DNA of 63,530 bases, counting the filler, from Candidatus Tectimicrobiota bacterium (GTDB lineage Bacteria > JACPSX01): the NCBI GenBank assembly GCA_016193065.1. It is 9 parts of 9 records of this genome, joined end to end, with 100 filler letters (N's around TTAATTAATTAA, not from the genome) between each part and the next. Parts side by side here need not be neighbours in the genome. Positions count along the whole stretch, not along the records: positions 19,985 to 30,259 come from JACPSX010000283.1; 8 more parts are not named here. One strand, given 5' to 3'. The first letter of the stretch is position 1. Each line of letters starts with the position of its first letter. The notes under the pieces were generated by a model that saw only the letters and a list, made by a program, of their open reading frames with translations, was not told the origin of the DNA and did not search any database. The position numbers were made by a program, and so were the translations under genes. Positions 3,283 through 37,333 of the stretch are shown here, in pieces.

Positions 3283-3689
3283 GAGAGCGTCGATTTCTTG
3301 CCTGATTTCCTCCCCGAAGGAGGCCGCGAGGTTTTTTTTACCTCCGGGCCTGCCGCTGGCACGGACCGCAGTTCACAAATCTCTTCATTGATCTCGATGA
3401 GTCGGTGGCTTAACTCTTGGAATCGGTGAAAAGTCTCTACCTCCCGTCTCAGCTTGGTCAGGGCAGGGCCGGAGCGAAACTGGCGGGTCTGGGTCTTCCC
3501 CTGCACCTTGCGGGTAAAGGTGAAATAGGGCCCATGTCCCGGGTGGCCCGGTTCCTTGCAACAACAGGTAGACTTCCCACACGTCAGATACTGTTCCACG
3601 ATGCTCCCTCGTCGCATATCCCCCAAGGCTTCAATCTCCCTTAAGGTCTGAGCCCGTTGCCGCTCTAAGGTCTCCTGGGTGTGGGCCAT
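3279..3689 (-). CDS. IS accessory protein (DUF6788-like, Cys/His-rich)
   Basis: MRRGSI...CGKSTCCC...GHGPYFTFTRKVQGKTQT. AGGAGG RBS. Lies inside the IS TIRs. Confidence 0.8.
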   Translation of the reverse strand: MAHTQETLERQRAQTLREIEALGDMRRGSIVEQYLTCGKSTCCCKEPGHPGHGPYFTFTRKVQGKTQTRQFRSGPALTKLRREVETFHRFQELSHRLIEINEEICELRSVPAAGPEVKKTSRPPSGRKSGKKSTLS

Positions 3690-4096
3690 AGAATCCTCCT
3701 TTATCTTAAAGTCTTAATACTCTAGGATTCTACGGCAACCCAACTCTTTTGTCAACTACCCACAAATTTGTCGCACACCCCAGCCATCTGACTCCCTTGC
3801 ATGGGCGTTCATGAATAATGCAGGCTAGCGGATTTGGACTTGCCTCTGCGAACGGAATGAAATGGGGGAGGGATCCCGCACCATAAGAGAAAGAAATCTA
3901 TCTCGGTATTTTTCTCGCTTTAGAGATGCTCCGATATGACGATAAATAACTCTCGGAAATAGAAGGTGATACAAGAAGAATACAACTTGAGTTCCACTAA
4001 AACTGAGCGAGACAAAAGATGAGCCATTCTCAAAGGTAGGCTTTTTCCATTTGAGGAGAGATCAAGGCAGGGTTGTCGTTGAAACACGAGACCGTT

Positions 4097-9934: not shown

Positions 9935-10034
9935 NNNNNNNNNNNNNNNNNNNNNNNNNNNNNNNNNNNNNNNNNNNNTTAATTAATTAANNNNNNNNNN
10001 NNNNNNNNNNNNNNNNNNNNNNNNNNNNNNNNNN
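9935..10034. other. Artificial contig linker. Identical linkers at 15081-15180, 19885-19984, 30260-30359, 47139-47238, 52201-52300, 55421-55520 and 59044-59143
   Basis: N-run + TTAATTAATTAA (stops in all six frames) + N-run; genes are cut on either side. Confidence 0.98.
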
Positions 10035-15080: not shown

Positions 15081-15180
15081 NNNNNNNNNNNNNNNNNNNN
15101 NNNNNNNNNNNNNNNNNNNNNNNNTTAATTAATTAANNNNNNNNNNNNNNNNNNNNNNNNNNNNNNNNNNNNNNNNNNNN

Positions 15181-19884: not shown

Positions 19885-19984
19885 NNNNNNNNNNNNNNNN
19901 NNNNNNNNNNNNNNNNNNNNNNNNNNNNTTAATTAATTAANNNNNNNNNNNNNNNNNNNNNNNNNNNNNNNNNNNNNNNNNNNN

Positions 19985-20311
19985 ATAGACGACCTTTTCC
20001 CCGTTCAACCGCGCTTCAAGAATCTCGCCGCCGGGATTGACGATATCGAGGCTTCCGCTCAGGAGCGCTTGAGTTGCCGTCCCTGACGCAATGTATTTGA
20101 GATCGACCGCCAATCCATATCGGACGAACAACCCCTTGTCCTGGGCCAACCACAGGGGAGCCATCAGCCCGCTAGGCGACGAGTAATTTGCTCTGAGCGT
20201 TTCGGTCTCGGCCCCCTGTGCGTTGCTGACAACGCCCGCCCAGCATACCAGGGCGATCCAGGCTACCGCGACGGTCCGCCTTCCCCACTGCCCGCGTCTG
20301 CCTCCGGTCAT
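19985..20311 (-). CDS. ABC transporter substrate-binding protein, NMT1/SsuA type (3' truncated)
   Basis: Signal peptide; APLWLAQDKGLF..YGL.V, QALLSGSLD. Confidence 0.8.
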
Positions 20312-20547
20312 CTCCCTCCCTCCTCTTCTTTACAAATACCCTCCAGTAACCCTTCCCCTCGGGAACTCTACCATCAACTCGGGTGGTCGATCGCCACCTC
20401 ACTGCTCCCCTCGTGCCCCAGACCGCCGGCGCGGGAGACCGGATCGCACGGAGGCATTCTTCCCGGAACATGGGGAATACGGACCCCCTCTGAAGGCCTT
20501 GCGGATCCGATTGATTCCTCTCCGGCTCAGGTACTTCCCCTCCGCAT

Positions 20548-21558
20548 CTACCGGTACAGATTCGCGATGAACCCGGATCCTTCCAGTTCTCTGAGGAAGC
20601 TGTCGTCCACGAGGCGGTTGACGTCCACGGAAGCGATGCGCGGATTCAGGGGGACCTGGATCTTCACGACGGTTCTCAAGCCTTCCAGCGTCGGGTAGGG
20701 GACCCGCGCGATCATCTTCACGCCGAAATAGTGCCGGGTTTTTTCGAGGATCTTCGGGTCCTGGATTTTGCTGTACTTCGCCAGGACTTTATGAGAAGTC
20801 TCCGCATCGGTTTTGAGGATATGGATGGCGTTGACGAAGGCCTTCATGAATTTCTCGACGTTGTCCCGGTGCGCCTGGATGTAGCGCCTGGTGACGGTGA
20901 CGCAGGCCCCCTGCGTCGGGATCCCCAGGGTGGAGATGTCCACCACGGTGTGATAGCCCAGGTCCTCCCCCTTAAAGAGCATGGGAGGGCTCAACATCCC
21001 CACGTCCACCACTCCGGTCTCCATGGCGGAGACGACCGTCTCCGGAGGCCCGATCGGGTTGATCTTCACATCCGCGGGGGTGAGCTTCAAATACTGCAGC
21101 GCCAGGAGGAGGGAGTTGTGAGGCTCGCTGCCGGGCTTGTCCGTGGCGATCACCTTCCCTTTGAGGTCCGCCGCCGTCATCGGGGTCTTTGACATCAGCG
21201 AGAGCCCCGGGGTGTTCGTCAGGCTTGCGATGATCACCACGTCCTGCCCGGCCGCCCCGGCATTCACTACGGCATTGCCGGAATTGACCGTGATGTCCAG
21301 GTCACCTGCCAGCAGCGCCTTGGTGGCGTTCTGGGAACCCCGGACAAACACGACCTCCGTGTCCATCCCGTACTTCTGGTACAGATTCTTCTCTTTGGCA
21401 ATCCAGATCGGGGCCATGACCCCGCTCACCGCAACCCAGGCGATCTTGGTCCTCGTCCCCTGGGCGAAAGCCGCCTGTTCGCGACCGGCAGGCGCCACAG
21501 GACTCCAGAGAAATGCGGCAAGGACAATAATCCATACGACCCGTTTCCAGTTTCCCAT
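20548..21558 (-). CDS. ABC transporter substrate-binding protein, NMT1/SsuA type
   Basis: Signal peptide; APIWIAKEKNLYQKYG, ALLAGDLD, DLKGK, LVDDSFLREL. Confidence 0.88.
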   Translation of the reverse strand: MGNWKRVVWIIVLAAFLWSPVAPAGREQAAFAQGTRTKIAWVAVSGVMAPIWIAKEKNLYQKYGMDTEVVFVRGSQNATKALLAGDLDITVNSGNAVVNAGAAGQDVVIIASLTNTPGLSLMSKTPMTAADLKGKVIATDKPGSEPHNSLLLALQYLKLTPADVKINPIGPPETVVSAMETGVVDVGMLSPPMLFKGEDLGYHTVVDISTLGIPTQGACVTVTRRYIQAHRDNVEKFMKAFVNAIHILKTDAETSHKVLAKYSKIQDPKILEKTRHYFGVKMIARVPYPTLEGLRTVVKIQVPLNPRIASVDVNRLVDDSFLRELEGSGFIANLYR

Positions 21559-21585
21559 GGTAGTTCTCCCCATCAGGACCGCCTT

Positions 21586-21897
21586 TTACTTCGGCGCTTC
21601 GGCGGCAAAGGCGCCGAATTCATAGGTAAGGACAAACTGCCGGCCGCAGTGGGAAATCCGCTCTCCGGCCCGGACCCCTTCGGGAAGCACGATCGTTTTG
21701 CGGCACACCGGACAGCTCACAATCTCCGCGATCCGGGCCACAAGCTCCGTCCCCCTCCCCTTCAACCGAAGGGTAACCCCCGCTCAGTTCGGACAGTCCA
21801 ACAGGTCATCCTGCTTGGCCGCCTCCGGCAAGCCGATGTACCTGCCTCACCCCGGGCACCAGATCCGATCCGGATTGGACGAAACTCCCCCGTTCAT
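21586..21897 (-). CDS. Putative selenoprotein: 103-aa zinc-ribbon-like protein with two CxxU motifs
   Basis: MNGGVSSNPDRIWCPG-U-GRYIGLPEAAKQDDLLDCPN-U-AGVTLR...SCPVCRKTIVLPEG...SHCGRQF...APK*. In-frame TGA at 21847-21849 and 21784-21786, each followed by a hairpin. ATGA overlap with the upstream glutaredoxin. Confidence 0.8.
21740..21783 (-). promoter_or_regulatory. Candidate bacterial SECIS after the second UGA of the zinc-ribbon gene
   Basis: CCCUUC-GGUU-GAAGGG stem-loop. The loop starts 16 nt after UGA and begins with G. Confidence 0.6.
21800..21846 (-). promoter_or_regulatory. Candidate bacterial SECIS after the first UGA of the zinc-ribbon gene
   Basis: Long hairpin GGCAGGU/ACCUGUU, CAUC/GAUG, GCUUG/CAAGC, CCG/CGG with loop GAGG 21 nt after UGA. 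Confidence 0.7.
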
Positions 21898-22136
21898 GGC
21901 AGCTTCAGCAGCTCCTGCAGCCTGCCCCGGTCGAACCCCACGATCACTTCGCCCCCCACGGTGATCACGGGAACCGCCTGTCTGCCGCTCAAGCGCACGA
22001 CTTCGTTGAGGGCCTCGAGATCTTCGGCCACATTGAATTCCTGGAAGACAACGCCTTTGGACGAAAGAAACTCTTTCGCTGAACGGCAGGCGCTTCACGT
22101 GGGCGCCGTGTAAACTTTCACTTCCGGTTGGATCAT
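21894..22136 (-). CDS. Selenocysteine-containing glutaredoxin (NrdH/YruB-like, UxxC)
   Basis: MIQPEVKVYTAPT-U-SACRSAKEFLSSKGV...SGRQAVPVITVGGEVIVGFDRGRLQELL. TGA 22095-22097 occupies the first Cys of CxxC. AGGAGG RBS. Confidence 0.92.
22050..22094 (-). promoter_or_regulatory. Candidate SECIS of the glutaredoxin
   Basis: AGCGCCU/AGGCGUU lower stem and CGAAAGA-GUU-UCUUUCG upper stem; loop 23 nt after UGA. Confidence 0.72.
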
Positions 22137-22259
22137 CCTTTTTCCTCCTCCTGAATCATAGCCGACCCATGCGCCGCACAATTTTTCAGCTCGTTCTTAA
22201 CCGCTCTCAATGTGCCACAGTGTCCCGCCAGGCCCTTTCAGCACAATTCGCGCATGATT

Positions 22260-22784
22260 TCAAAAATCGATGTCAATCTGTAGAGAATCGATAAACTTGT
22301 TGAATGAGGCAAATAATTCCATCACTCCAAGCGCTTCGATTATCTCGGCATCAGACGGGCCGGCCTCTCTAAGGGACCCGTAATCAGAATGCGATATCTT
22401 CAGGGGAGCCACATTGGCTTTTCTTGCAAAACTGATAAGTGCTTTTTCTTTCCCGCTAAAATTCGCTTTTTCTATATTCTCTTCGATATTTCTAATCTCT
22501 TCATCCGAAACACCAATGGATTTTAAAGCGGCGGTATGGGCACGGATGCAGTAATTGCAGCAGTTGTCTCTGGAAACCAGAACAGCAATGGCCTCTTTCA
22601 CTTTGCGGCTCAGGTTTCCTTCCATCATGAGCGCCTTGACCTTGTTCCAATTGGCCCCCAGAAGCGCTGGATGATGTGCATAGGTCTTAAACAGATTCGG
22701 CGCCGTGCCAAATGCGCTTTCAATTTCGTCGAGTACTTTCTCTGTTTCCTTTGATACGGTCTGGGGCGGTTTGATTCTCGACAC
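22260..22784 (-). CDS. AhpD/carboxymuconolactone decarboxylase-family peroxidase-related protein
   Basis: PNLFKTYAHHP, LSRKVKEAIAVLVSRDNCCNYCIRAH. Confidence 0.88.
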   Translation of the reverse strand: MSRIKPPQTVSKETEKVLDEIESAFGTAPNLFKTYAHHPALLGANWNKVKALMMEGNLSRKVKEAIAVLVSRDNCCNYCIRAHTAALKSIGVSDEEIRNIEENIEKANFSGKEKALISFARKANVAPLKISHSDYGSLREAGPSDAEIIEALGVMELFASFNKFIDSLQIDIDF

Positions 22785-22832
22785 GATATTTCCTTTTCTA
22801 AATGTCCGGTTTACCCGGGAATGTCTAAAACT

Positions 22833-22851
22833 ACCGACCATTCGGTCTATT
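22833..22851. promoter_or_regulatory. Putative TetR operator upstream of the ahpD-like gene
   Basis: ACCGACCATTCGGTCTATT, nearly identical to the site at 23477-23495; resembles the NemR-type box TAGACCnnnnGGTCTA. Confidence 0.7.
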
Positions 22852-22866
22852 TACTGTTAAGAGAAA

Positions 22867-23457
22867 TTACTTCTCCAATTCAATCAGTGTCCTTAAAGAA
22901 TTCAGACAATCCTTCAAGGGTTTTTCACTTTTTTCAAGGCGTGCAAGCATGATGCCTCCTTCGATAGTCATTACTATGTGCCTAGCCATCGCTTCCGCAG
23001 ACAAATCACATCGTATCTGTCCTGAAGACTGAGCCGACCGAACCGCTACCCGCACTCTTTCGATCCATTCGCCGAATACCCTGTCGATAAACACAGCCAC
23101 TTGTTTGTCTTTATCGCTCATTTCCAGTGCACTGTTACCAAAAATGCAGCCTCCGACGAACTTTGTACTTCTATGTTTTCCCAGAACCTTCTTAAAGAAA
23201 TTATCGAGGCTTTCGCCTGCTGTCCTTCCCGTGAGAGAAGAGTCAAGAAATTCGAGGAATTCCGTACGCGCTTTTTCGAGAACGGCGTAAGTGAGTTCAT
23301 TTTTATCGGAGAAATGGAAATACAAACTTCCTTTTTTAAGGCCCGTTGCTTCCATCAAATCACAAATGCTGGTGCCCTCAAAACCCTTTCGCTGAACGAG
23401 ACGGGTCGCCTCGAGTAGAATTTTCTCTTTTGTCAAAACTCCTTTAGACTGCCTCAA
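22867..23457 (-). CDS. TetR/AcrR-family regulator (NemR/LmrA-like)
   Basis: KGFEGTSI..GLKKGSLYFHFSDKNEL HTH; GGCIFGNSALE. Confidence 0.92.
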   Translation of the reverse strand: MRQSKGVLTKEKILLEATRLVQRKGFEGTSICDLMEATGLKKGSLYFHFSDKNELTYAVLEKARTEFLEFLDSSLTGRTAGESLDNFFKKVLGKHRSTKFVGGCIFGNSALEMSDKDKQVAVFIDRVFGEWIERVRVAVRSAQSSGQIRCDLSAEAMARHIVMTIEGGIMLARLEKSEKPLKDCLNSLRTLIELEK

Positions 23458-23476
23458 TTTTCATCCTTCCTCATAA

Positions 23477-23495
23477 ACCGACCGTTCGGTCTATT
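23477..23495. promoter_or_regulatory. Putative TetR autoregulatory operator
   Basis: ACCGACCGTTCGGTCTATT about 20 nt upstream of the tetR start. Confidence 0.7.
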
Positions 23496-23543
23496 TTATT
23501 ATAGAGGGAGACAAAAGGAAAGAAAAATTTCCCTGGACTCTCC

Positions 23544-24812
23544 TCAGGTGACGGGAATTCGCCGGTCAAAGACCACAAAGCGCGACCGGCGGGTCTCTTC
23601 GAGAGCAGCTTGAATCAACTTGCGCTCCCTCGGCTTTGTGTATTGAGGCAAAACCGCCTCGAAAAATCGGGTGTAAAAGTGATCCGGGTAAACGACCACC
23701 TGTGTTCTCAACTGAAGACCGCCGCTTTCAATTCGCTTCCGGTACGTCCACTTCCAGCGGCCTCCCGGCGGGATCCGCGTGTCGTAGATCTCCCGGGAAA
23801 GATCCAGCTCGACCTCGCGACCAATGGATTTTTCCACAAGACTCCCCGCGATCCTCTTCCCCGCGCGCTCCTCGAGCCAGAATCGGACGATCACCTTGGG
23901 CGTCACGTAGGTGGGGAAGAAGTGCCCTGTCCCCCGGTTCGCGATTTGAAGGGTCGCCTCCAAAAGCTCTCCCGGACGATATCGGGATTTTCCGCTGGTT
24001 AGGGACACGTCAATCCCCTGGCGGACCATCTCCGGAGAGTGGATCCCCTGCCAGAGATGTCTGCGGTCCGGCATGTGACACCCCTGACAGGTAACCCCGG
24101 AGCGGGCGTAAGAACTCTCCAGCCACTCGGCGTAGGTGTTCTCCAAAAGTTTCCCGTTCAGGGCGAAGCCGTCCTCTCGGAACTGATGACAATCTTTGCA
24201 GAACTCGGATCGGCTGAAGGTCTCCTGAGAGGTAAAACCCCCGTGGGGAAGGGAGGCCTGTGCCGGCTTCGCGGATTCAGGCGGCCCGCCCCGCGGGGGA
24301 GGGCCAAAGCGCCGGTGTTTGCGCACGTGACAGGCGGCGCAAATCAACCCTCCTGCTTGCAGGTCCTCATCGAAGCCGGTGTTGTTGACGAACACTCCGG
24401 ATCCGGCGGGTGAGCGCAGTTTTCTGAGTTGCTCGGACCGGGGCGCATGACAGCTCTGGCAAAGTTCCGCCGTGCCGGGGTCCCTGCCCTCCATTTCAAG
24501 CACCTGCCCGAGTACTCCCGGGCCCATGCCTCGGCTGTGCCGTGAGGTCCTCCAGGCACGATATTGCTCCACGTGGCAGGTGCCGCAATCCTCCGGCCGG
24601 AGGGATGCCTCCAGTGGACTGTATCCGGCGGGAGCCTCCCCTTGAGGGGGAATGGGCTTTCGCCAGTGAGACTCCAGAAACGATTCAATCTCCCCGGCGG
24701 GAGACTGTTGGGGAAGGGTCCAGGAGAGCAAAAGACCCAGGCCTCCCAGGGCAAAGCCCAAGCTCACCAGGGCCGAAGGACGGAGTCGTTTTTTACCCGC
24801 TTGGATCTCCAA
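23544..24812 (-). CDS. Pentaheme c-type cytochrome (c554-like) with N-terminal membrane anchor/signal
   Basis: Five CxxCH motifs: CGTCH, CQSCH, CAACH, CKDCH, CQGCH. Confidence 0.88.
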   Translation of the reverse strand: MEIQAGKKRLRPSALVSLGFALGGLGLLLSWTLPQQSPAGEIESFLESHWRKPIPPQGEAPAGYSPLEASLRPEDCGTCHVEQYRAWRTSRHSRGMGPGVLGQVLEMEGRDPGTAELCQSCHAPRSEQLRKLRSPAGSGVFVNNTGFDEDLQAGGLICAACHVRKHRRFGPPPRGGPPESAKPAQASLPHGGFTSQETFSRSEFCKDCHQFREDGFALNGKLLENTYAEWLESSYARSGVTCQGCHMPDRRHLWQGIHSPEMVRQGIDVSLTSGKSRYRPGELLEATLQIANRGTGHFFPTYVTPKVIVRFWLEERAGKRIAGSLVEKSIGREVELDLSREIYDTRIPPGGRWKWTYRKRIESGGLQLRTQVVVYPDHFYTRFFEAVLPQYTKPRERKLIQAALEETRRSRFVVFDRRIPVT

Positions 24813-24891
24813 GATGAATTCGCTTCCTTACCGACGAAATGACGGAGGGAGGGGCATTTCCTCCCCTCCCTCGCCTGTGGATCTACCCGTT

Positions 24892-25260
24892 TTACTTGAC
24901 CTCCCGATCCAGCTTCTCCTTGTAGATGTTCCCGCTGCCCGGAGCGGCGCACGGATTCGCCGCCGCCCAGGGGTTGGCCGCCGCCGGCCGCGCAGTCGCC
25001 TTCGGAGAACTCACCTCCCGCTCCAGTTTCTCCCTGTAGATGTTCCCGCTGCCCGGAGCGGCACAAGGATTTTGTGCCTTGGGCGCACAAGGGTTCTGTG
25101 CCTTTGGGGCACATGGGTTGGCTGCCGGGGTGGCCGGAGAGGAGACCTCCCGTTCCAACTTTTCCCTATAGATCCTCTCCTGGGACCAGGAGACTCCAAC
25201 AGAGCCGACCAGAAAAGTCAGCACGGCCATCAGGACCACAACTGCCTTTACGGACCTCAT
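24892..25260 (-). CDS. Small secreted protein made of NPCA and IY(R/K)EKL(E/D)REV repeats
   Basis: Signal peptide and GGAGG RBS; three IYxEKLxREV units and several NPCA units; repeats visible at DNA level. Confidence 0.75.
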   Translation of the reverse strand: MRSVKAVVVLMAVLTFLVGSVGVSWSQERIYREKLEREVSSPATPAANPCAPKAQNPCAPKAQNPCAAPGSGNIYREKLEREVSSPKATARPAAANPWAAANPCAAPGSGNIYKEKLDREVK

Positions 25261-25382
25261 CGTTCCCCTCCCTCCTGGATCGCTTATAGCAATCCTCTAC
25301 TGGAATACACCCGAACTCAACCGGGAAAGCAATTCACCAGCGGTTCGGGAACCTACAAATCTCGAAATTAATTCCTCCGCAT

Positions 25383-26129
25383 CTACAGCCGCTCCAATAA
25401 CCATCGGGGCGTGATCTGGATCGCATAGCTGTTCAACGCCGTGAACGTATTCGTCAAAAGGAGGACTCCGACGATGACCAATACAAGCCCTCCGACTGTA
25501 TGGATCACGGGAACCAGGCCTCGATAACGGCGAAACAGCCGCAAGAACGAGTTCATCCCCAATGAACTCAGAAAGAAAGGGACCGCAAGGCCGATGGAAT
25601 ACAATCCCAGCAGGGCAATTCCTTGACGCACTTCCTCTGAGGTTGTTGCCAACAGCAAAATCGAACTAAGCACCGGCCCCACGCAGGGAGTCCAACCGAC
25701 AGCAAAGGTGACTCCGACCAGAAAGGCCCCCAGATAGCTGCCCGGCCGGCTTTTCACCTGGAACTGCTTTACTTGCATGAGCGGCCCAAACCGGATCAGG
25801 CCGCTAATCGCAAGCCCGAACAGAACGATCAGGCCGCCCCCGATCTGACGGATGAGATCCTGGTACTGGAACAGGGAGCGGCCAGCCAGCGAAAAGGACC
25901 CTCCCAATGTCAGGAAGACGAGGGAAAATCCCAGGATGAACCAGAGGGACCGCACAATCACACGACCGCGCACCTCTTTGAGCTTCCCGGGATCTTGCAA
26001 TTCCTCCAGAGAACTCCCCGCCACGAAGGAGAGGTACGACGGGACCAGGGGTAAAACACAGGGCGACAGGAAAGAAAACGCCCCGGCACCCAGCGCAATG
26101 ACCGAGCTGACTTCGGCAGGCGCCACCAT
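25383..26129 (-). CDS. ccdA: Cytochrome c biogenesis protein CcdA (DsbD TM domain)
   Basis: SFLSPCVLPLVP, GWTPCVGPVL, YSIGLAVPF. Confidence 0.93.
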   Translation of the reverse strand: MVAPAEVSSVIALGAGAFSFLSPCVLPLVPSYLSFVAGSSLEELQDPGKLKEVRGRVIVRSLWFILGFSLVFLTLGGSFSLAGRSLFQYQDLIRQIGGGLIVLFGLAISGLIRFGPLMQVKQFQVKSRPGSYLGAFLVGVTFAVGWTPCVGPVLSSILLLATTSEEVRQGIALLGLYSIGLAVPFFLSSLGMNSFLRLFRRYRGLVPVIHTVGGLVLVIVGVLLLTNTFTALNSYAIQITPRWLLERL

Positions 26130-26134
26130 GATCG

Positions 26135-26695
26135 CTACTTCACTTTCAGGGCCGAAATCAGCTGGTCCCATTCGGGCCTGCTCAGGTCTCGTCCCCCCAC
26201 GGCCTTCCCGGCGATTCTTCCTTTCCCGTCGATGAGAACCAGCGTCGGCGGGGCAAAAAATTCATAGGACCGGGCCACCTTCATGTCCTTGTCCAAGAGG
26301 ATCGGGAACGTCGCTCCCTTCTCCCGCACAAAGGGGCGGACCACCTTCTCTCCTTCCGCATCGATGGAGATCCCCAGGACCACCAGGTTTTCAGCTTTGT
26401 GCTTCTTGTAGAACGCCTCGAAGGAAGGAAACTCCTCCCGGCAGCTTGGTCACCAGGTGGCCCAGAAAACCAGCAGGATGGGTTTTCCCCGCCAATCGGA
26501 GAGTTTCTTCTTCCCTCCGTTGAGGTCCGGCAAAGTAAAATTCGGAGCCGGACGAACCGTCTGCGGCTCAAACCCCAGGGCCTTGAGGAGCCCCGGTTCG
26601 ACCCCCATTGCCGTGGCGCGAAAAGCAAACATCACGAGAACAATGATGCTCAGGCCATAAACCCACCGGGACGTTCCTTTACGTTGCTTTCCCAT
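26135..26695 (-). CDS. Selenocysteine-containing TlpA/ResA-like disulfide reductase (UxxC)
   Basis: APNFTLPDLNG...LLVFWATW-U-PSCREEFP...VLGISID...FPILLD...PTLVLIDGKG. TGA 26450-26452 joins the split ORFs 26450-26695 and 26135-26383 in one frame. Confidence 0.92.
26412..26449 (-). promoter_or_regulatory. Candidate SECIS of TlpA
   Basis: GGGAGGA-GUU-UCCUUCC stem-loop 17 nt after UGA; same GAGUUUC apex as the glutaredoxin hairpin. Confidence 0.68.
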
Positions 26696-26777
26696 CGGAT
26701 ATCCCCCTCCCCCTTATTCTCCCCGTGTCATCCAGATCCGAGATCGTGTCGGGGATCTCGTTAAGATCCGATCAATC

Positions 26778-27161
26778 TCATTGCAAACTCCAAGGCCAGG
26801 AAGAGATGAATGTGATCAGAAGCGCCCCTCCAGACAGGGCGATGTTTTTCCAGAAATGGTGCAACTGGTTCATGCGGACCATGGGGTCCTTCTCCGCCCA
26901 GAAGTTGTGCATCTTAAAGGCAGTGGGAACGAGGAAAATGATCAAGAGCCATCCCCCAAGCACCGGCTGGTAGCCCAGCAGGATACTAAGACCGCCCAAT
27001 AGCATCAAAATCCCGGTGCCCGCCACGGCCAGGCCGGGGGCCGGGATCCCCTTGCTGCGGGAGTACGCAGTCAGTTGGCCCATATCCGCAAAGTGATGGA
27101 TGCCATTCCAGATAAAAAACCCGCCAAAGACGATGCGACCGATCAGGAAGAGTACGTTCAT
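26778..27161 (-). CDS. DoxX-family membrane protein
   Basis: LIGRIVFGGFF, GGLSILLG, HNFW...HFWKNIALSGG. Confidence 0.9.
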   Translation of the reverse strand: MNVLFLIGRIVFGGFFIWNGIHHFADMGQLTAYSRSKGIPAPGLAVAGTGILMLLGGLSILLGYQPVLGGWLLIIFLVPTAFKMHNFWAEKDPMVRMNQLHHFWKNIALSGGALLITFISSWPWSLQ

Positions 27162-27293
27162 GGCTCCTCGCCTTTCTCGCTGTTGCCCTTTCCAGGGTTC
27201 TCAGGGGATGGGGTTTCAGGAGCCATTTTTAAGCTGCCTTCCTTTGTCGATCAAGCTTCTTTTCCCGGGCGGTTTCCTGCCCTCACCCGGATG

Positions 27294-27953
27294 CTACTTG
27301 GGGGCGCAAGGATTCTTGGGAGCGCAAGGGTTACCCGCCGCCCCGCAAGGGTTCTTTGCCGCACAGGGATTCTTTGCCCCGGCGGGTTTCTTGGAAGCAG
27401 CGGCCTTGAACTTCTTTTGAACCTCACCGGAGTAGGCAGTTAGCGCTGCCAGCTCCTTCGAATCCCAGGCCAGCGGCTTGGCCGCCATGGGGACCACCAT
27501 GCAGATCTGCACCATTTCATCCAGGTGGATCTTGGCCAAACCGGCCTTCTCCTGCACCATATCCACCGCATGCGGGTAAGGCTTGGCAAATCCGGGCTTG
27601 AAGGCTGCATTGTTCTGATGGCAGGTCTGGCAGGACAGGCCGTTGGTGCTCAGCTTGGTATCTTTCCAGAGCTGCTCTCCCAGCTTGACCAGCTCGGCCC
27701 GCTTGCCGGCAAAGAGCTTGGTCCCGGCAGGACGCGTGATCAGTTTGGGGTCCACTTCCCATTTTCCGGCCTTGGCTGGCTTGGCGGCACACGGGTTTGT
27801 TGGCGCGCACGGATTCGCCGCCTTTTTTGGTGCGCACGGGTTGGCTGCCGCGCACGGGTTAGCTGCCTTTTGCGCTGCATCGGCTGCTATGAGACCCAAC
27901 CCGAGAATACCGGCAATCAGCATCACGACGATTAGCAAACCTCGAAGTCTCAT
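27294..27953 (-). CDS. Monoheme cytochrome c (TsdA/SoxA-like domain) flanked by NPCA repeats
   Basis: Signal peptide; NGLSCQTCH; DEMVQICMVVPMAAKPLAWDSKELAALTAY; NPC repeats at both ends. Confidence 0.8.
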   Translation of the reverse strand: MRLRGLLIVVMLIAGILGLGLIAADAAQKAANPCAAANPCAPKKAANPCAPTNPCAAKPAKAGKWEVDPKLITRPAGTKLFAGKRAELVKLGEQLWKDTKLSTNGLSCQTCHQNNAAFKPGFAKPYPHAVDMVQEKAGLAKIHLDEMVQICMVVPMAAKPLAWDSKELAALTAYSGEVQKKFKAAASKKPAGAKNPCAAKNPCGAAGNPCAPKNPCAPK

Positions 27954-28428
27954 GAAATCCCCTCCTCTCAGTTCGGCGTTAGCTTCAAAGGCCACGCACA
28001 AAATAACCAACTCTGAGGTTGTAACCTTTTAACTTGCCAGATAGTATGGTTGCCTCATGCTATCTGGGGTCTGATGAACAGACTGTAGTTCAGACTACAA
28101 ATCCCTCGCTTCGGTCCTCAAAAGATCAACTTATAGATGATCGCCCCTACCCCTCCCAGGAGTAGCAACCACGTGGAGGGTCACATCTGCCTCCAAAGAC
28201 TTTTCCTCTTCATGGTTCTCCCTTCTGAAGGTCTTTCCTCCCACAAGAGGAAAATGGAATCCCGGCCAGCAAACAGGTTCGGTTCTCGGCACTCTGTCGA
28301 CTTATTTCATGCTAGATAGATGAAAGCGGATCCCGTTGGATTCAAAAACTTTCACTTTTTTCCGAAGCCACGGGGTTTGCAGATCCTGAATTCGTCTTCT
28401 GGTGCAGAGTCTAGCAGAGGATTTCTTG

Positions 28429-28660
28429 TCTACCTTCGGAGACATGGCCGCGCCGGACGCCGCGGACGAAGGGCAGATTTTCCCCGCCCATCGGAGAGCT
28501 TTTTGTTCCCTCCGTTGAGGGCCGGCAGTGTGAAATCCGGGGCGGCCTGAAGCGCCCCTGGCTCAAATCCCAGAGCCTTGAGGAGGTCCGGCTCGATCCC
28601 CAGTGCCCGCCCGATGGCCCCGAAGACGAGCAGAACCGCAAGATCCGTCCGGATTGGCCA
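28429..28660 (-). pseudogene. Truncated duplicate of the TlpA 5' region
   Basis: GIEPDLLKALGFEPGALQAAPDFTLPALNGGNKKLSDGRGK aligns to TlpA GVEPGLLKALGFEPQTVRPAPNFTLPDLNGGKKKLSDWRGK, then diverges before the active site. Confidence 0.8.
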
Positions 28661-28663
28661 CGC

Positions 28664-29047
28664 TCATTGCAGGCTCCAGGGCCATGAGGAGATGGACGTG
28701 ATCAGAAGAGAGGCTGCAGCCAGGGCGATGTTTTTCCAGAAATGGTGCATCTGGTTCATGCGGATCATGGGGTCCTTCTCCGCCCAGAAGTTGTGCATCT
28801 TATAGGCGCTCGCAATGAGGAAGATCACCAGCAACCATCCTCCAATCACCGGCTGGTAGCCCAGCAGGATACTCAACCCACCCGCCAGCATCAGTAGTGC
28901 GGTGCCCACAACGGCCAGGCCGGGAGCCGGAACCCCCTTGCTGCGGGAGTATGCAGTCATCTGCTTCAATTCGACAATGTTATAGATACCGCGCCAGACG
29001 AAGAAGCCCCCAAAGACAATGCGACCAATCAGGAAGAGAACATTCAT
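28664..29047 (-). CDS. DoxX-family membrane protein (paralog of 26778-27161)
   Basis: Near-identical termini MNVLFLIGRIVFGGFF ... ISSWPWSLQ. Confidence 0.9.
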   Translation of the reverse strand: MNVLFLIGRIVFGGFFVWRGIYNIVELKQMTAYSRSKGVPAPGLAVVGTALLMLAGGLSILLGYQPVIGGWLLVIFLIASAYKMHNFWAEKDPMIRMNQMHHFWKNIALAAASLLITSISSWPWSLQ

Positions 29048-29107
29048 GACTCTTCTCCTTTCTCGAAGTTGTCCTTCCCAGAAAAACACCCGCCCCCAAA
29101 ACCGGGT

Positions 29108-29330
29108 TTAAGGTCGACACGCCGAACCGGTTCTCCGTTTCTCCGTAAGCACCCAGTCGATCTCTAACGAGTCTTCTTTCAAGAAAACGCCGTAGGCGGC
29201 CTGGGCGGTCGCTATGGACACATAGCCGCGCCCGACGTCCCGGACGACCCGCTCCACTTCCCTGTGGAGCGGGTCTCCGTATCCACCGCCTCCCGGGTAC
29301 TCGATGAGGATGCGGTCTTCCCTGGAGAAG
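29108..29330 (-). pseudogene. C-terminal remnant of hydantoinase B/oxoprolinase
   Basis: EYPGGGGYGDPLHREVERVVRDVGRGYVSIATAQAAYGV; no start codon, upstream in-frame stop. Confidence 0.75.
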
Positions 29331-29523
29331 ATGGATCCGCATTCGTTAGAGACGGCAAGGACCCCGCCCCCATGGGATCGAAGTCCCCTCGCACAGTTTG
29401 CAAAAAACTTTCAAGAAGTTGGAGTCCAATTCTCAAGCCCTTGAGGTCTAACTGTCAAGGCTTTTTCGAAGAAGTTACGCGAAAGAGTACCGTCGTCTGG
29501 AAAAAATGCCAGCGGCCCCTGCC

Positions 29524-30259
29524 CTATTCCGCCGGCTTTTGCCGGAGGTGCTTGGGGATGACCAGGTTCTCCAGCAACTCAAAGGCAAACTCGGCGAGGA
29601 CGGCCAGCAGCGCGGCGGGAACCGCGCCTTCCAAAATCAGAGAGGGATCATTCAGAGCGAGCCCGGTCACAATCGGCTCACCCAGACCCCCGGCTCCGAT
29701 GAAGGCGGCCAGCGTGGCTGTGCCGATGTTGATGACGGCGGCCGTCTTGATGCCGGCCAGAATCATCGGAGCGCCCAGAGGGAGCTCGACGTGCCGCAGC
29801 CGCTGCCAGGCGGTGAGGCCCATGCCCACGGCGACTTTTTTCAGCACCGGATCGATGGAAAACAGGGCGGCCGCCGTGTTCCTCAAAATGGGAAGAAGCG
29901 CGTACAGAAAAAGCGCCACGATGGCGGGCGTGGGGCCGATCCCAAGCAGTGGGATCATGAAGGCCAGGAGAGCGATGGAGGGGATGGTCTGCAGCAACCC
30001 CGCCACGTAAATGACCGGCCGGGAGATCACGCGCAGCCGGTAGACGAAAACTCCAAAGGGGATCGCCACGGCCATCGCCGCCAGGAGTGCAATCAGGGTC
30101 AGCTTGAGGTGCGTGGCGACACGGGAGAGCAAGGTGACCCACTTACCCGGCTCCACGAAACCGCCCTGGCCGTGCAGCAACCCTTTTTTGCTTAGAAACC
30201 CCCGGGCGATTTCCGCAAAGCTCTTCCCCTCCAGAACGGCCATTCCGTTGAGTTCCTGC
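29524..30259 (-). CDS. Osmoprotectant (glycine betaine) ABC permease, fused type (5' truncated)
   Basis: LQTIPSIALL, YALLPILRNT, VELPL, AAFIGAGGLG. Confidence 0.88.

Positions 30260-32791: not shown

Positions 32792-37333
<4,542 letters not shown>

Follow-up and report, generated by a model that had tools for sequence, protein, structure and literature searches.

In most known prokaryotic selenoproteins, selenocysteine (Sec) serves as the redox nucleophile of a thioredoxin-like fold. The carrier proteins LysW and ArgW are single zinc-ribbon domains of ~55 aa with a conserved acidic C-terminal tail carrying a terminal Glu, and rubredoxin forms a tetrahedral four-Cys site from two CPxC(G)-type knuckles; in rubredoxin-type sites the second Cys of each knuckle is the more exposed ligand. 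For Sec in a zinc ribbon there is a thin precedent, the FmdB family (TIGR02605/COG2331), which was predicted in 2008 from the GOS (Global Ocean Sampling) data to be a CxxU selenoprotein (PMC2398784; 2 Sec against 807 Cys sequences) and which is entered with 2 Sec in Table 1 of PMC13188914, where the Sec-containing glutaredoxin (UxxC) is an experimentally verified family. Here we describe a small gene in a 63,530-nt stretch of DNA (the window) from Candidatus Tectimicrobiota bacterium (assembly GCA_016193065.1), which comprises nine parts of the genome joined end to end, positions 19,985 to 30,259 coming from JACPSX010000283.1. Judged from sequence comparison, this tandem zinc-ribbon gene with two in-frame TGA codons (the ribbon gene) is probably a real selenoprotein gene with two Sec, belonging to a family missing from every catalogue checked, a claim to which we assign a probability of 0.85-0.9.

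The predicted gene and its two TGA codons lie as follows.

21586..21897, minus strand: predicted tandem LysW-type zinc-ribbon selenoprotein gene, 103 aa, two Sec, stop codon included (translation with TGA as Sec)
21847..21849, minus strand: TGA 1, predicted Sec17, CPG-U, fourth position of the first knuckle (translation and Cys/Sec column)
21784..21786, minus strand: TGA 2, predicted Sec38, CPN-U, fourth position of the second knuckle (translation and Cys/Sec column)

Translation with TGA as U reproduced exactly the 103-aa product that a sequence-only reading of this DNA had proposed, with U17 in CPG-U, U38 in CPN-U and, after both Sec sites, CPVC and HCG in the second half, followed by TAA at 21586-21588. 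The ATG (21895-21897) shares the tetranucleotide ATGA (21894-21897) with the TGA stop of the upstream glutaredoxin gene, as had been claimed, and the claimed gap of about 28 nt to the next gene agrees with the distance from the ribbon stop to the second ATG of that gene (27 nt, at 21558), the first ATG lying at 12 nt (21573). The standard code yields just a 59-aa C-terminal open reading frame (ORF) at this locus (21586-21765), and Sec forms of the family appear in public sources solely as C-terminal fragments of 54-63 aa, in keeping with the proposed invisibility of the gene to ORF callers.

A search with C replacing U returned 35 proteins with a length of ~95 aa and an identity of ~50%, all of them reaching across both TGA positions. 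The family, whose members are ~95 aa long, occurs chiefly in Rokubacteria/Methylomirabilota metagenome-assembled genomes (MAGs) and in metagenome contigs. In public sources its members carry generic, mistaken names such as 'ribosomal protein S27E' and 'RPC12/RpoP', are labelled 'topoisomerase 1 Zn-ribbon' or 'FmdE', or are called hypothetical. In the alignment, each full-length homologue has Cys at both TGA columns, as CPDC...CPNC. The DNA of the relatives, namely 30 loci from one-per-species genomes and 66 loci from metagenome contigs, was read through stops, and the resulting 97 sources (96 loci and the window) were examined for the state of the two sites. Four sources remained unclassified, two being 5'-truncated (L095, L096) and two being missed by the motif pattern and Cys/Cys in their translations (L003, L027). 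The other 93 divide as follows, site 1 being given before site 2.

Cys/Cys: 58 sources
Cys/TGA: 24 sources
TGA/TGA: 4 sources (the window, L031 at 66% identity, and the divergent L093 and L094)
TGA/Cys: 1 source (L077)
5' end missing, site 2 Cys: 4 sources
5' end missing, site 2 TGA: 2 sources

At least one of the two sites is TGA in 31 of the 93 classified sources. TGA occupies site 2 in 30 of the 93, the window counted, and in 5 of the 30 loci from one-per-species genomes, while site 1 is TGA in 5 of the 87 sources that have a 5' end (the window, L031, L077, L093 and L094). The states require a minimum of 3 changes at site 1 and 7 at site 2 on a tree of 87 rows whose resolution is weak. The expectation that Cys-containing orthologues would exist was borne out, the orthologues covering both TGA columns, and conserved in-frame TGAs, likewise predicted, recur at both columns in other organisms; the closest relative, L031, retains both at 66% protein identity. 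In the translations of the relatives that were read, no TGA was found at any further Cys column of the ribbon family and no other in-frame stop inside the ribbon gene. The two positions would switch between Cys and Sec within the family, all four combinations occurring. Four proteins of 463-3051 aa (P0059, P0069, P0079 and P0094) contain 6-7 repeats matching the ribbon query, and these arrays of similar CxxC units belong to a quite different architecture.

Each TGA of the window is followed by a hairpin resembling a bacterial selenocysteine insertion sequence (SECIS).

21800..21846, minus strand: SECIS-like hairpin 1, apical loop GAGG starting 21 nt after the UGA (folding)
21758..21773, minus strand: SECIS-like hairpin 2, CCCUUC-GGUU-GAAGGG, 6-bp stem, loop starting 16 nt after the UGA (folding and covariation)

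The sequence-only reading had placed a hairpin with a G-starting loop 16-21 nt past each UGA, and both were found, GAGG at 21 nt and GGUU at 16 nt. These two distances fit the bacterial SECIS model reported by Zhang and Gladyshev. Guanosines of the apical loop are conserved in SECIS elements according to a figure legend in the GOS paper (PMC2398784). The structure at site 2 was examined in an ungapped alignment of 22 distinct TGA forms, which gave a consensus 6-bp stem beginning ~10 nt after the UGA and a loop containing GG. In this stem 94.7% of the cells are paired, versus 47-67% with slid 3' partners; three of the six pairs show a compensatory change, and the covariation score was reached by none of 500 shuffles. 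All six pairs form in 19 of the 22 distinct TGA forms versus 0 of 52 distinct Cys forms, and for the 24-nt core the TGA forms have a median of -11.1 kcal/mol versus -2.8 kcal/mol for the Cys forms. On this comparative evidence, the covarying hairpin after TGA 2 is a SECIS-type element conserved as structure. At site 1, hairpin 1 of the window has an energy of -27.5 kcal/mol (z = -2.77; 2 of 200 shuffles equally good), a local hairpin forms in all five TGA forms, its loop beginning with G in four, and the median energy is -12.3 kcal/mol in the five TGA forms versus -8.3 kcal/mol in 65 Cys forms. The proposed tie between hairpin and TGA state is clear at site 2, where no Cys form pairs fully, and less certain at site 1, which folds with a weak consensus.

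The region upstream of the second TGA evolves as a protein-coding sequence would. Across 30 usable of 46 Sec-form pairs, the median ratio of nonsynonymous to synonymous substitution rates (dN/dS) is 0.13 from the first knuckle to site 2, versus 0.18 downstream. Both TGAs are reproduced in contigs from other samples of the same study: a contig of 858 nt from run X2 covers 21500-22200 and differs only at 21620 (E93G), and a divergent-strain contig from run X4 spans both TGA sites with no variant listed there. These results bear on the alternative that the locus is a pseudogene with two TGY to TGA substitutions, of which the 59-aa C-terminal ORF or nothing at all is made. A change from TGC or TGT to TGA takes one base, ORF callers give C-terminal fragments only, and E93G is a strain variant at a conserved residue. 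We nevertheless regard a pseudogene as very improbable, given that TGA falls at the same two columns in about a third of the classified sources and in several clades, with no other stop in frame in the translations read, that the covarying hairpin is present in TGA forms only, that dN/dS is low upstream of the TGA, and that nothing disrupts the frame, the start codon or the ATGA coupling, L031 keeping both TGAs at its level of divergence.

Two more TGAs of the window stand at redox Cys positions, one in the glutaredoxin (T-U-SAC) and one in a TlpA-like gene (FWATW-U-PSC).

26135-26695, minus strand: TlpA/AhpC-TSA-type thioredoxin-like gene, active-site TGA at 26450-26452, FWATW-U-PSC (in-frame TGA)

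The TlpA-like gene probably belongs to a known family of Sec thiol:disulfide oxidoreductases, and its active-site TGA is further evidence for the use of Sec by this organism. A window-wide scan for TGAs at Cys-type motifs gave 116 matches, mostly spurious, and recovered the glutaredoxin, ribbon site 2 and the TlpA-like site; a glutaredoxin-like-looking site at 35776-35778 (minus strand) was dropped, its translation being junk. Within the window, none of selA, selB, selC and selD was seen. Among five genomes with TGA-form ribbons, selB lies above the curated cut-off in four, and tRNA-Sec is present in all five, one being marginal (47.5 versus a cut-off of 47); selB and tRNA-Sec adjoin on one contig in three of them (G001, G002 and G004). 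Were UGA read as Trp, Gly or Cys, through suppression or a changed genetic code, the frame would also stay open, as it does under any code with TGA as sense. That alternative strikes us as scarcely credible, considering that TGA terminates 18 of the 49 window ORFs of at least 250 aa as well as the glutaredoxin gene that overlaps the ribbon, that all in-frame TGAs found fall on redox or metal Cys columns with a SECIS-type hairpin at each, and that relatives with TGA forms carry adjoining selB and tRNA-Sec.

Several observations weigh against the selenoprotein assignment. The site-1 hairpin registers differ among the five examples, and RNAalifold yields a weak consensus of -5.26 kcal/mol, in which the covariation term is unfavourable (+1.84). 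The 60-nt stretch around site 2 of the window is ordinary in energy (z = +0.16), and the evidence for the site-2 hairpin accordingly comes from comparison with relatives and not from energy; in the window and L031, moreover, the register of the site-2 stem is off by one base from the other forms, and the statistics on TGA versus Cys forms carry no correction for shared ancestry. The nearly invariant Glu93 is Gly in the population of another sample (21620 T>C on the plus strand, runs X2 and X3). The presence of selB likewise in four of five Cys-form genomes removes its power to discriminate, a result to be expected, since the Sec-glutaredoxin is present in all of them. Finally, ARAGORN found no tRNA gene in the window, and no Rfam family matched the window at its gathering score, a chance snoRNA match (E = 2) lying near the ribbon gene. 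Gly at the Glu93 column is also seen in one distant family member, P0076.

With these points counted, a real two-Sec selenoprotein gene remains the best explanation overall, with a probability of about 0.85. Both in-frame UGAs would be decoded as Sec, each by way of its own downstream SECIS hairpin, to give a 103-aa cytoplasmic protein of two LysW-type ribbons.

The fold assignment draws on profile and structure comparisons. The Pfam family PF21344 (Zn_ribbon_LysW) matches the ribbon protein with 29.7 bits against a cut-off of 27 and aligns to two stretches of the product, as expected from the internal repeat that had been noticed in the sequence. An AlphaFold2 model built from the family alignment is all-beta, with a predicted local distance difference test (pLDDT) score of 87.8 and a predicted template-modelling (pTM) score of 0.72. 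Foldseek against the PDB gave no match at E <= 0.001; the best was 3vpb_E, with a template-modelling (TM) score of 0.71 on the target, a root-mean-square deviation (rmsd) of 1.3 A over 46 columns, a probability of 1.00 and E = 0.014. VIA-align ranked 3vpb_F first (Z 7.3; rmsd 1.4 A, 47 residues) and 3wwl_A second (Z 5.8), the next row having Z 3.6, and no structural match other than LysW stands out, which supports the LysW-like ribbon named in the sequence-only reading. The PF01485 domain (IBR, half-RING) also scored above its cut-off (28.5 versus 24.3 bits), covering profile positions 12-48 of 65; chains of RBR ligases reached Z 2.2-2.9 and there is no RING context, and we read this match as a shared Cys pattern.

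By the family profile, the first knuckle aligns with the CPVC knuckle of Sulfolobus tokodaii LysW. We infer that a single Cys2Sec2 metal site is built from two knuckles, C14/U17 and C35/U38. Sec codons occur solely in the N-terminal ribbon, where they take the place of the second Cys in either knuckle. The ligands of the N-terminal ribbon would then be Cys14, Sec17, Cys35 and Sec38, with selenium as the second ligand of each CPxC knuckle.

The same matches raise the question of whether the protein is itself an amino-group carrier of lysine or arginine biosynthesis of the LysW/ArgW type, for which a PF21344 score above cut-off and LysW as the top structural match would speak. Such a role seems extremely unlikely, given scores for NF041070 of 44.6 bits (ribbon protein P0001) and 57.8 bits (Cys homologue P0010) against a cut-off of 75, the tandem of two ribbons, and C-termini that vary after ...AAE, the window protein ending in ...AEAPK. 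Moreover, the neighbours identified in the Pfam runs (glutaredoxin, MerF, MerT-like, HMA, NMT1-like substrate-binding protein, CMD, TetR, ArsR and Prx-like) include no lysine or arginine enzyme, no search having been targeted at LysX. The two-Sec protein might instead bind iron as rubredoxin does and serve as a one-electron carrier with a selenium-tuned potential. Facing CPxC(G) knuckles are a rubredoxin-type arrangement, and sequence cannot separate zinc from iron; this idea is improbable, in that the top sequence and structure matches are to zinc-binding LysW, of 31 Pfam families at E <= 1 the 25 shown include no rubredoxin, and the loci examined contain no partner reductase or oxygenase.

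The ribbon gene lies in a row of genes on the minus strand of the window, the order being TetR, CMD, Sec-glutaredoxin, ribbon with two Sec, and NMT1-like.

22867..23457, minus strand: TetR-family regulator heading the gene row (TetR_N 40.9 bits, TetR_C_13 65.4 bits)
22260..22841, minus strand: AhpD-like/CMD-family protein, upstream, Cys form, CCNYC (PF02627, 56 bits)
21894..22136, minus strand: Sec-glutaredoxin, T-U-SAC, TGA at 22095-22097 (PF00462, 62.7 bits; NF041212, 66.1 bits versus a cut-off of 66)
20548..21573, minus strand: NMT1/THI5-like substrate-binding protein, downstream (PF09084, 67.2 bits)
25383-26171, minus strand: CcdA/DsbD_TM gene overlapping the TlpA-like gene (Pfam)

The coupling to a Sec-glutaredoxin claimed for the window extends to the family. 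A glutaredoxin match lies upstream of the ribbon in 87 of the 96 loci, most of the remaining loci being cut at the 5' end, and the active site of the glutaredoxin is TGA, never Cys, in all 76 loci in which the motif was found, as it is in 28 of the first 30 loci. An NMT1/THI5-like gene also follows the ribbon in L067 and L068. Taken together with the Mer-like neighbours described below, this pairing suggests that the ribbon acts as a cytoplasmic thiol/selenol partner of the Sec-glutaredoxin.

Other features of the window were noted in passing. The gene at 24892-25260 (minus strand) encodes a small protein that looks secreted and contains internal repeats (NPCAPKAQ and NIYREKLEREV units); next to it, at 23544-24812 (minus strand), lies the gene for a protein of multi-haem type that has several CxxCH motifs. 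Sixteen runs of 44 N, which occur in pairs (for example 19885-19928 with 19941-19984, and also 9935-9978 and 15081-15124), interrupt several ORFs and limit annotation; they also break a substrate-binding gene at 19937-20311.

Mer-like genes are the commonest further neighbours of the ribbon in relatives. Within the available flanks of the 96 loci, many of which are short contigs, HMA occurs in 41, MerT-like in 33 and MerF in 32; these genes lie downstream of the ribbon in Rokubacteria-type loci and upstream elsewhere. In L010, where the genes are chained by ATGA overlaps, the neighbours are MerF (NF033565, 56 bits versus 50), a weak MerT-like match and UxxU_metal_bind (NF041115, 114 versus 95). 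In L068 the order is ArsR-type regulator, MerT-like, HMA(UxxU), Sec-glutaredoxin, ribbon (CPF-U), NMT1-like and double CMD (CKF-U), with a CsoR-type repressor and a P-type ATPase on the other strand, and its glutaredoxin-ribbon-NMT1-like part is syntenic with the window. Across the loci, the HMA metal motif is UU in 21, CC in 13 and UC in 4.

Further candidate selenoproteins were encountered among these neighbours. A MerP-like HMA protein with a signal peptide and the motif GMT-U-G-x-U (two TGAs) fits NF041115 (e.g., L010:4128-4418), and such UxxU forms are found in L001, L006, L007, L008, L010, L017, L019, L024, L025, L026, L029, L068 and others. The double CMD/AhpD-like protein of L068 (5051-6289, plus strand) has an in-frame TGA in a C-K-F-U motif. 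In L041, a secreted AhpC/TSA-family protein with HW-U-PYC (3352-3945, plus strand) directly follows a Cys/Cys ribbon, an ECF (extracytoplasmic function) sigma factor and an anti-sigma factor, assigned by eye, lying upstream. Two MerA-like flavoprotein disulfide reductases below the MerA cut-off, at G009:C163:15284-16594 (326 bits) and G004:C91:27500-28813 (323 bits), have one in-frame TGA each and may be Sec pyridine nucleotide-disulfide oxidoreductases. Lastly, P0136 (296 aa, from a contig of 1997 nt) joins a Cys/Cys ribbon in frame with a MerT-like membrane protein, after which comes a chromate-transporter-like piece, and may be a genuine fusion or the result of a lost stop codon; in a search for longer or fused forms P0136 was the sole match for a ribbon-MerT-like fusion, too thin a basis to carry weight.

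As to function, we tentatively propose, at somewhat short of even odds, that the N-terminal site is an exchangeable soft-metal site that works with MerF/MerT-type carriers. The tetra-thiolate/selenolate site would be reactive and exchangeable for soft metals rather than purely structural, the ribbon might take up or pass on a thiophilic, Hg(II)-like ion at the cytoplasmic face of these carriers, and the coupled Sec-glutaredoxin could catalyse ligand exchange or re-reduce a selenylsulfide or diselenide. In this proposal we infer metal binding, the identity of the metal, the direction of transfer and the physical contact with glutaredoxin. The window itself speaks against the proposal, in that it contains no MerF, MerT-like or HMA gene (tblastn, E <= 1e-4), and the metal-transfer reading is consequently borrowed from relatives. 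MerA scored above the curated cut-off in none of five cluster-bearing MAGs, a weak piece of evidence, the MAGs being incomplete. The bolder suggestion that the ribbon, as a natural soft-metal site of Cys2Sec2 (or Cys4) type, is the cytoplasmic end-point of a selenium-dependent, MerA-independent route for mercury or soft metals, leading from the UxxU MerP-like protein through MerF/MerT-like carriers to the Sec-ribbon with the Sec-glutaredoxin driving exchange, is on balance doubtful. If it were true, selenoproteins would replace the flavoenzyme step in uncultured groundwater and soil bacteria, Hg(II) being held or passed on via Hg-Se bonds and not reduced.

The neighbourhood of the window fits at least as well with a second function, in which the two-Sec protein is a redox switch or electron relay, zinc-centred or metal-free, with a Sec17-Sec38 diselenide or a selenylsulfide reduced by the Sec-glutaredoxin. 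Here the neighbours are of redox type (AhpD/CMD, with CcdA and the TlpA-like U-PSC protein 4 kb away), along with TetR, and are not Mer genes; in 16 of the 96 loci the ribbon has a TlpA- or Prx-like gene nearby, which in L041 follows it directly, and the partner glutaredoxin has an obligate Sec. Against this stand the Mer-type carriers and HMA proteins, which are the commonest further neighbours (32-41 of 96 loci), the ArsR- and CsoR-type metal sensors in the operons, and the one ribbon-MerT-like fusion. We consider a redox switch or relay rather unlikely, and the same holds for its extension, in which the ribbon-glutaredoxin pair would feed reducing power to AhpD-like, TlpA/CcdA or membrane Cys-pair proteins. 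The soft-metal and redox readings can overlap.

The proposed two-Sec ribbon would represent unusual selenium chemistry, with two Sec at the metal-ligand positions of a zinc ribbon, 21 codons apart and each with its own SECIS. Its pairing with the Sec-glutaredoxin, together with MerF, MerT-like and UxxU MerP-like proteins without a recognisable MerA, points to a possible soft-metal or thiol-selenol module of Rokubacteria/Methylomirabilota-type and groundwater bacteria, and raises two questions: what Sec contributes as one of the ligands of a tetrahedral metal site, and how carriers of the mercury type can function when no reductase is present.

The suggestion of the sequence-only reading that the protein is absent from described selenoprotein families was upheld in NCBIfam 20.0 and in the 119-family table of PMC13188914. 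No curated NCBIfam model (release 20.0, June 2026), the '(seleno)protein' models included, was reached by P0001 or the Cys homologue, and neither the Dual CXXC motif small protein (NF041197) nor MbdU (NF045648) is among the NCBIfam matches of P0001 and P0010 at E <= 0.01. Table 1 of PMC13188914, a review of May 2026 with 119 prokaryotic selenoprotein families and subfamilies, contains no LysW-type ribbon. The main texts of PMC13188914, the Haft and Gwadz preprint, PMC13326102 and PMC12013277, the last two being on BSepDB and deep-Sep, contain neither 'ribbon' nor 'LysW'; supplementary tables such as those of BSepDB might list the family. No description of the ribbon family was found in the literature on selenoproteins with zinc ribbons or zinc fingers, on MerP and mercury, on Rokubacteria or on deep-Sep.

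Among described selenoproteins, the Sec-glutaredoxin (PF00462) has a thioredoxin fold and one Sec, is already known, and is a likely partner of the ribbon, not a relative. The UxxU MerP-like selenoprotein (NF041115) resembles the ribbon in that two Sec replace two Cys of a soft-metal site in the same operons; it differs in its HMA ferredoxin-like fold, its signal peptide and probably periplasmic location, and the placement of both Sec in one UxxU, and it is already catalogued. The FmdB family shares with the ribbon a small zinc ribbon, a predicted Sec in a CxxC-type knuckle and many Cys homologues. In contrast to that family, however, P0001 reaches 18.5 bits where the TIGR02605 cut-off is 31.3, and the ribbon would have two Sec in two knuckles of one ribbon, a SECIS for each and a fixed Sec-glutaredoxin partner. 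The Sec columns of the ribbon match the second Cys of each CPxC(G) knuckle of rubredoxin, from which the ribbon differs in having no rubredoxin match among the 25 Pfam families shown of 31 and in that its best relatives bind zinc. The closest likeness is to LysW/ArgW (PF21344; PDB 3VPB, 3WWL, 5EIO), with a zinc-ribbon fold and two Cys knuckles in each ribbon half, the knuckles of S. tokodaii LysW resembling in aligned sequence the second ribbon of the window protein (CPVC...HC). Whereas LysW and ArgW are single ribbons with biosynthetic partners, the protein described here is a tandem within ~95-103 aa, with Sec predicted at ligand positions and with a Sec-glutaredoxin and Mer-like proteins as its probable partners.

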